Shown here one piece after another: positions 29,252-29,762 of a stretch of DNA of 64,000 nucleotides. Location: assembly GCA_964626905.1 (NCBI GenBank), contig CAZVHA010000008.1, forward strand, positions 7,872-71,871. The letters run 5' to 3'. The notes under the pieces were generated by a model. That model had not been told where the DNA came from. It saw only the letters and a list, made by a program, of their open reading frames with translations, and did not search any database. Positions within the stretch are counted from its first letter, which is position 1. Every line of letters starts with the position of its first letter. The stretch is from an uncultured bacterium. GTDB taxonomy: Bacteria; Chlamydiota; Chlamydiia; Chlamydiales; SM23-39. Made by a program: the position numbers and the translations under genes.

Positions 29252-29539
29252 ATGCAAATGTCCATTCAAGATCTATCAAGAGTCGCTTTATTGACCGCTT
29301 GTGCATTTTTTTGCATGTCAGGGCAAGCTGTCCGCAGAGAAATGACCAATGACCCCACCACGCAATTGGAAAAGGAAGCAATCGAAGCGAAAGAGCAATG
29401 GGTCGCCGAAGCCCCTCGCATTGCCGAAGAGCCCAAAAGCGCAGCGAAAAGAGCGATGGAAGAAGTTCCAGGTGCGCCAAAATCCCGAAAAAGCGCCGCG
29501 CGCAAAGCGATGGAGCTCGAAGGGGATTTTTCCGAATAG
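29252..29539 (+). CDS. Small secreted protein with an internal repeat (PKSAAKRAMEE / PKSRKSAARKAMELE)
   Basis: Strong RBS AGGAGGAGGG directly upstream of the ATG at 29252. Signal-like ALLTACAFFCMSG. The longer track ORF starting at 29069 overlaps speH on the opposite strand. Confidence 0.5.
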   Translation: MQMSIQDLSRVALLTACAFFCMSGQAVRREMTNDPTTQLEKEAIEAKEQWVAEAPRIAEEPKSAAKRAMEEVPGAPKSRKSAARKAMELEGDFSE

Positions 29540-29543
29540 GATA

Positions 29544-29734
29544 GGCATTGTTGCATAAATCGCCGAAGCCCCAACAGACTTAAGTAAATATTTTACCACC
29601 GAGCTCACCGAGAGCTCCGAGGCGCGAGAGACGCGCATTCTTCCCTTTTTCTCGGCGCGCTCGGTGTGCTCGGTGGTTATTAATTTTCTTGCTGTCAATG
29701 ACTTATATATATGCAGGAATTATGCAACAAAGCT
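29544..29734 (+). mobile_element. MITE-like element, family A, copy 2 (191 bp) with a perfect 9-bp target-site duplication
   Basis: Ends are ggcattgttgcataaat... and ...aattatgcaacaaagct. Internal long palindrome ACCACCGAGCTCACCGAGAGC...GCGCTCGGTGTGCTCGGTGGT. AATAGGATA occurs at 29535-29543 and 29735-29743. Confidence 0.8.
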
Positions 29735-29762
29735 AATAGGATATACCGCGCATGGTATAAAA

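Follow-up and report, generated by a model that had tools for sequence, protein, structure and literature searches.

The closest described element to the one analyzed here is MITEAba12 of Acinetobacter, which is mobilized by ISAba12. MITEAba12 is a noncoding element of 113 bp, bounded by 16-bp repeats of the form GGCTTTGTTGCA(C/T)AAA, with an 81-bp core of 78% A+T, 9-bp target duplications and a preference for AT-rich targets (PMC6382973). Among related insertion sequences, GGCTTTGTTGCATAAA is the repeat of ISAba7 IRL and of MITEAba12 IRR, and GGCTTTGTTGCATAAATA is that of ISAba10 (PMC6382973 Table 2). The IS903 group of the IS5 family comprises elements of 950-1150 bp that encode a DDE transposase and generate 9-bp duplications (PMC8431375; PMC3281130 Table 2; PMC2577343 Table 1). 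IS903 itself moves both replicatively and by cut-and-paste (PMC8431375, PMC3003695), and its repeat has been quoted as GGCTTTGTTGAATA (PMC8477213). Reduced host-associated genomes also contain short palindromic mobile repeats, such as the QMITEs of Coxiella (PMC10969869) and the repeats of Orientia and Rickettsia (PMC2575882). For the chlamydiae, insertion sequences have been reported in only 5.7% of genomes (PMC9208149), and the searchable literature contained no described chlamydial MITE.

Here we describe a MITE family, designated family A, in an environmental chlamydia, on the basis of a 64-kb stretch of DNA (hereafter the window, meaning the whole of that stretch), in which two copies lie, and of related contigs. 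Family A resembles MITEAba12 in being noncoding, in having ends within 1-2 mismatches of the MITEAba12 repeat, in its 9-bp target duplications and AT-rich targets (PMC6382973) and in sharing sequence with the candidate parent insertion sequences only at its ends. In contrast to MITEAba12, its two full-length copies are 191 and 179 bp long, its core has 47% G+C and a long GC-rich hairpin, and its host is an environmental chlamydia rather than a member of the Moraxellaceae. Moreover, no co-resident parent insertion sequence was seen for family A, which is known from sequence alone. Identity with MITEAba12 itself was thus rejected on length and composition; only the termini agree, the core having been compared by description. 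The left ends also match the terminal 18 bp of IS903, IS102 and ISKpn74 (IS5 family, IS903 group) at 16 of 18 positions and share with them a 9-bp duplication (PMC8431375), but IS903 is 1057 bp long and encodes a DDE transposase, whereas family A encodes nothing. The Coxiella, Orientia and Rickettsia repeats differ from family A in their termini and parent families. In addition, Rickettsia palindromic elements lie in frame inside genes, whereas family A is strictly intergenic; an identity as a Rickettsia-type palindromic element (RPE) was rejected, as all three copies lie between genes, downstream of stop codons. Family A is apparently the first MITE described in Chlamydiae, within the searchable literature. 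It is an element of an ordinary kind, which leaves the accepted view of how MITEs work unchanged and is useful for chlamydial genomics.

Anatomy of the element at 29544-29734

Copy 2 of family A occupies positions 29544-29734 on the plus strand of the window and is 191 bp long, with a G+C content of 47%. Positions 29535-29743 read AATAGGATA, followed by the element, which begins with GGCATTGTTGCATAAATC and ends with GAATTATGCAACAAAGCT, followed by AATAGGATA again. The two flanking 9-mers, at 29535-29543 and 29735-29743 (both plus strand), abut the two element ends directly, match each other perfectly (9/9) and occur nowhere else in the 64 kb. For element boundaries fixed independently by comparing the copies, the chance of a 9/9 match between flanks, computed from base composition, is ~4e-6. 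The left terminal inverted repeat, GGCATTGTTGCATAAATC at 29544-29561 (plus strand), agrees with the IS903 repeat at 16 of 18 positions and with the ISAba7/MITEAba12 repeat at 15 of 16 (PMC6382973 Table 2). The right one, at 29717-29734 on the minus strand, reads inward as AGCTTTGTTGCATAATTC and has an A as its outermost base where copies 1 and 3 have a G. These terminal repeats are imperfect, 13 of the terminal 15 bp being paired (GGCATTGTTGCATAA versus AGCTTTGTTGCATAA).

Further inward lies a second palindrome, paired at 19 of 21 positions. Its left arm (29595-29622, plus strand) is composed of three 9-nt (N)CACCGAG-like units and its right arm (29651-29677, plus strand) of CTCGGNGNG units. 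Between the arms are a central GC mini-hairpin, GGCGCGAGAGACGCGC (29621-29636, plus strand), which is the sole part of the element that varies between assemblies or strains (at 29623-29626), and a pyrimidine-rich tract, ATTCTTCCCTTTTTCT (29637-29652, plus strand), where a 17-nt stretch is found tandemly duplicated in copy 1. As a single strand, copy 2 folds with an energy of -75.9 kcal/mol, compared to a mean of -47.3 kcal/mol for shuffled sequences (z = -6.6). The element has no usable ORF, each reading frame containing at least one stop codon or lacking a start. Protein searches with both frames yielded no homolog except spurious ORFs over other copies; specifically, the minus-frame translation of copy 2 returned no candidates as a protein query. 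An Rfam search of the window returned four tRNAs only, and nothing at copy 2.

Copy 2 is located between two convergent genes. On its left is a gene for a conserved small protein of 95 aa (29252-29539, plus strand) with a signal-peptide-like N terminus and an AGGAGG ribosome-binding site; homologs of 83-90 aa are found at the equivalent position in relatives. On its right is a gene for an EamA/DMT transporter (29763-30689, minus strand), the stop codon of which lies 19 bp past the right duplication and the homologs of which are named as Chlamydiae or Parachlamydiales. The TAG stop codon of the small protein gene (29537-29539) falls within the left AATAGGATA. With this stop codon included in the duplicated 9 bp, the insertion left both neighboring reading frames intact. 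A preliminary description of this DNA had reported a 191-bp element with a perfect 9-bp duplication, its terminal repeats, a long internal palindrome and the presence of the TAG within the left 9-mer. These observations were all reproduced here, at the same coordinates and with the same sequence, and can now be given the pairing values (13/15 and 19/21) and the fold score listed above.

Termini and candidate parent family

The terminal consensus of family A is GGCTTTGTTGCATAAAT. As an IS903 reference we used a 143-nt IS903 end that was 100% matched in plasmids annotated as "IS5-like element IS903 family transposase"; in one annotated IS903 record, the repeat GGCTTTGTTGAATAAATC and its complement bound the 1057-bp element. 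Family A ends agree with this repeat at 16 of 18 positions (left ends) and with the ISAba7/ISAba10/MITEAba12 repeat at 14-15 of 16. With up to 3 mismatches allowed, the matches to GGCTTTGTTGAATAAATC in the 64 kb were confined to three of the four element termini, compared to a chance expectation of 0.18 matches. All five intact family A termini lie within 1-2 mismatches of GGCTTTGTTGCATAAA, and this 16-mer had no other match in the ~170 kb of DNA fetched from the population and its relatives. At position 11, family A has a C, as in the ISAba12-like subgroup, whereas IS903 has an A. The position that varies among family A's own termini is position 4, which in the IS903 repeat is reportedly tolerant, a finding ascribed to Derbyshire et al. 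in 1987.

The IS903 group is characterized by a terminal repeat of 15-27 bp beginning GGCTTTGTTG (PMC6382973 Table 2; PMC8477213) and by a 9-bp target duplication (PMC8431375; PMC3281130 Table 2), and both were found in family A. The termini and the 9-bp footprint therefore point independently to the IS903 transposase group. The predicted parent family, which the preliminary description had left unnamed, is the IS5 family, IS903 group. The flanks of family A depart from the target motif WTTYA-N9-TRAAW, with matches at 5 of 10 positions for copy 2 (TTCCG/TACCG) and 3 of 10 for copy 1 (AGAGG/CAGTT), a motif that is E. coli IS903's own (PMC2577343 Table 1) and not a definition of the group.

We conclude that the element is very probably a MITE that a DDE transposase of the IS903 group (IS5 family) mobilized in trans. 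Like other bacterial MITEs, family A is noncoding and shorter than ~500 bp, has terminal inverted repeats abutted by a target duplication, is present in several copies, here three at unrelated loci, and is polymorphic, with orthologous sites that are free of the element. Its mobilization in trans by an IS903-group enzyme is inferred from these ends and this footprint. In the proposed mechanism, such a transposase, encoded elsewhere in the genome now or formerly, would bind the 16-18-bp terminal repeats (GGCTTTGTTGCATAAAT) and cut at their GGC tips; it would then join the element to a target site opened by staggered cuts 9 bp apart, and gap repair would produce the 9-bp duplication, here AATAGGATA. 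Tblastn searches with the IS903 transposase revealed no IS903-type transposase in the window, in 12 kb of contig extensions, in the contig that carries copy 3 or in the relatives' loci, which together comprise ~92 kb of DNA from the population and ~80 kb from relatives. The proposed partner is thus unobserved, tblastn having detected none in the 64 kb of the window and ~110 kb of loci related to it. Pfam searches assigned housekeeping functions to the window genes checked; among ORFs of at least 130 aa, 48408-49790, most of 49818-50531 and most of 19320-20159 lay outside the scan.

These data bear on several further statements of the preliminary description. Its reading of the element as a non-autonomous transposon is now supported by the additional copies, the 8/9 duplication at copy 1, the element-free relatives and the IS903-type ends. 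The tblastn result for the 64 kb agrees with its report that the window contains no transposase, and the literature searches are in line with its comment that Chlamydiae-type genomes are not well known for such elements. The IS903/ISAba12-type ends of the MITE indicate past activity of an IS5-family transposase in an environmental lineage of chlamydiae.

Additional copies and insertion history

Copy 1, which is 179 bp long, is located at 5809-5987 on the minus strand, in the orientation opposite to that of copy 2. The two copies have both termini in common and a core that is 88-90% identical, but copy 1 contains the 17-nt internal tandem duplication, and its right subterminal part is different and shorter. 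When the alignment to copy 2 is used to fix the boundaries, the flanking repeats of copy 1 are ATAGTAAAT (element orientation; 5988-5996, minus strand), which contains the TAG stop codon of a GT92 gene (5993-6784, minus strand), and ATGGTAAAT (5800-5808, minus strand), which matches the other side at 8 of 9 positions and begins on the final base of the TGA stop codon of ORF 5321-5800. Copy 1 also folds more strongly than shuffled sequences (z = -4.7).

Copy 3 came to light in a search of 1.84 billion representative proteins with the plus-frame translation of the element as the query; a spurious 100-aa ORF (P0241), which lies over the copy, matched at 96% identity. Copy 3 is located at 10060-10237 of ENA contig k139_497787 (L026), between a ShlB-type gene and a glycosyltransferase gene. 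In blastn it is 97.7% identical to copy 2 over copy 2 positions 18-190, the sole difference being a 4-bp indel in a TA run. Copies 1 and 2 define a right boundary for the element, and GGCTTTGTTGCATAAT, the right end of copy 3, finishes precisely there, with unrelated DNA beyond it. The left terminal repeat of copy 3 is missing; what lies between the ShlB stop codon and the core is an unrelated sequence of 19 nt (L026 10041-10237). The loss of the left end precludes determination of a target duplication for this copy, and it follows that at least one copy is now immobile or is the product of a rearrangement. The core of copy 3 is identical in two strains whose flanks differ by 1.7%, and the state of the copy could reflect a recent deletion next to it or gene conversion among the copies. 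L026 probably derives from the same population as the window, because it has a similar G+C content and has a member of the 23-nt palindrome family described below that differs by 3 mismatches.

Thus, three family A copies with a common core of ~150 bp were seen at unrelated loci in ~92 kb of the population's DNA. A blastn search of a plasmid collection with the element gave no match. The conserved left-end 19-mer TTGTTGCATAAATCGCCGA gave chance hits only, two in GTDB representative genomes (Bacillus and Herbaspirillum, where ~20 bases matched in blastn) and two in JGI metagenomes, where the context was unrelated. The IS903-group termini and duplication, with no partner transposase visible, would also be expected if a full-length IS903-like insertion sequence had lost its transposase gene at this site and never moved as a short element. 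That decay in situ is highly unlikely, given that the same ~150-bp core is present at three loci, that tblastn detected no transposase remnant and that the 9-bp flanking repeats differ between two of the copies. The short form itself must have spread, because independent deletions would not yield the same junctions.

The gene order at the copy 2 site, with the EamA gene convergent to the small protein gene and an AdoMet decarboxylase gene on the far side of the latter, is kept in relatives whose EamA proteins are 81-83% identical at the amino acid level. In two of them the element is absent: the orthologous EamA and small protein genes overlap by 6 bp in one (L008; a gap of -6 bp) and are separated by 31 bp in the other (L012). 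If the element and one of its two 9-mers are subtracted from the window, the two genes are 23 bp apart, in the same range as these. By contrast, a strain with 97.8% nucleotide identity to the window (L028) carries the element at this very site, flanked by AATAGGATA as in the window. Because of its presence in L028 and its absence from L008 and L012, the insertion predates the split from the L028 strain and postdates that from the 81-83% relatives. The preliminary description had proposed a search for the empty allele as a check. The element is indeed absent from the orthologous gaps of the two relatives, but an allele with a single AATAGGATA was not recovered, L028, the only near-identical strain available, also carrying the element. 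At the copy 1 site, the closest GT92 relatives (91% and 73% amino acid identity) have different downstream neighbors, so an empty-site comparison cannot be drawn there. The presence or absence of family A at such sites offers a ready marker for strain typing (filled versus empty sites).

A third relative has a sequence of its own in the EamA/small protein gap. At L010 10975-11075 (GCA_964424735.1) we found a near-perfect palindrome of ~97 bp (AACAGGATATGCAGGATCGCTTTGCGGCAGGATATGCA...), unrelated to family A, at which the Logan contig of that genome breaks.

The window itself is a metagenome-assembled contig of an environmental, Parachlamydiales-like chlamydia. Identical or near-identical contigs to the window were found in ENA (ERZ27284375/76/80) and Logan (SRR8863434/35) assemblies. 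Two Logan assemblies both break at 29696, inside copy 2, and the element explains the breaks of short-read assemblies at this site. The Logan contigs come from de Bruijn graphs with a k that we assume to be ~31. The breaks at 29696 are signs of more family A copies; the window's two other repeat families likewise contain the ends of further Logan and ENA contigs. Compared to an ENA contig of the same strain (L001), the window differs within 21 kb only at the hairpin center (29623-29626) and by two SNPs. The center reads GCGCGAGAG in the window and copy 3 and -ATCAGAG in L001 and L028. These variants could have arisen by read recruitment from other copies during assembly, by gene conversion or by strain mixture.

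The palindromic sequence and the assembly breaks would be in keeping with a REP/BIME-type or IS200/IS605-associated palindrome (Y1/RAYT transposase), or with an artifact of palindrome assembly, yet we regard both as scarcely tenable. Such palindromic elements are not known to have terminal inverted repeats of this type or to make a target duplication, and a RAYT-dependent REP/BIME identity was rejected on the length of 191 bp, the terminal repeats and the 9-bp duplication of copy 2. Correia elements generate a TA duplication, and an identity as a Correia-like element was also rejected. As for length, REP/BIME elements measure 20-40 bp (PMC3733652), whereas copy 2 measures 191 bp. An artifact is countered by the finding that the element is identical in independent assemblies at k = 119, 139 and 141 and in two strains.

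Convergent gaps and other repeats

All three family A copies reside in gaps between convergent genes, directly after stop codons. According to a crude gene model, the window is ~93% coding. Convergent junctions account for 12 of its 66 junctions, and MITE-like elements occupy exactly the widest three (175, 192 and 223 bp). The location of the copies probably reflects survivorship, because in a genome that is ~93% coding only convergent gaps can take a 190-bp insertion without the breaking of a gene, promoter or operon. The same location, along with the strong folds of copies 2 and 1 (z = -6.6 and -4.7), the unrelated ~97-bp palindrome of L010 in the same gap and the central GC hairpin followed by a T-rich tract, would be consistent with a selected structural module, such as a bidirectional terminator, an RNA-stabilizing hairpin or an insulator, whose transposon-like ends are incidental or ancient. 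We consider such a module improbable. Consensus scans detected no intrinsic terminator or promoter inside copies 1 and 2, two relatives have no element at all in the EamA/small protein gap, and the 9-bp flanking repeats and the termini of a known transposase family are left unexplained. Exaptation after insertion may have occurred and would supplement the MITE reading, not compete with it, and the consensus terminator and promoter scan gives it no support. A broader proposal would be that, within compact genomes of environmental chlamydiae, convergent gaps are systematically colonized by unrelated palindromic mobile elements (family A, the 165-bp element described below and the L010 palindrome), which are exapted as bidirectional terminators or insulators, and that the near-identity of the termini to those of Acinetobacter ISAba7/ISAba10/MITEAba12 stems from IS903-group elements having passed between phyla, for instance inside amoebae. 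As a joint statement we hold this to be improbable.

A second MITE-like element, 165 bp in length, is located at 3404-3568 in a convergent gap (region 3401-3571). It has 29-bp terminal repeats matched at 28 of 29 positions (GGGATCGTAAGGA[C/A]ATAAATGTTACACTT) and is flanked on both sides by TAA, the left one being the stop codon of ORF 2432-3403. This 3-bp duplication presumably indicates a different subgroup of the IS5 family. ENA contigs terminate at this element or begin within or close to it.

A perfect 23-nt palindrome, AAATGTAAAGCGGCTTTACATTT, is found at window positions 14-36, 32095-32117, 41682-41704 and 61919-61941 (three exact copies and one with 1 mismatch), and a related copy with 3 mismatches is found at L026 4805-4827. 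Every copy is inside an ORF, and two frames of the palindrome are open, KCKAALH(L) and NVKRLYI. The frame NVKRLYI is used in an 822-aa protein and KCKAALH in RmlD-like, SufD-like and Peptidase_S11 proteins, with PyrC using one of the two. In the RmlD-like protein, the palindrome falls in a variable loop that is unrelated in sequence in three relatives. Logan contigs break at this palindrome as well. Its appearance is that of a short palindromic repeat carried in frame, and recalls the Rickettsia palindromic elements.

Lastly, two gene-level features of the window were observed. A tandem duplication at 17897-19353, with a period of ~743 bp and 79-94% identity, gave rise to the paralogous ORFs 18007-18603 and 18750-19310, neither of which has a Pfam match. 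Genes for a LigD primase-polymerase and an ATP-dependent DNA ligase are located at ~34400-36300 of the window (L001 4517-6267), and a relative also has Ku (L012 5133-5918); the LigD and ligase genes, with Ku in L012, are a nonhomologous end-joining set in a chlamydial genome.
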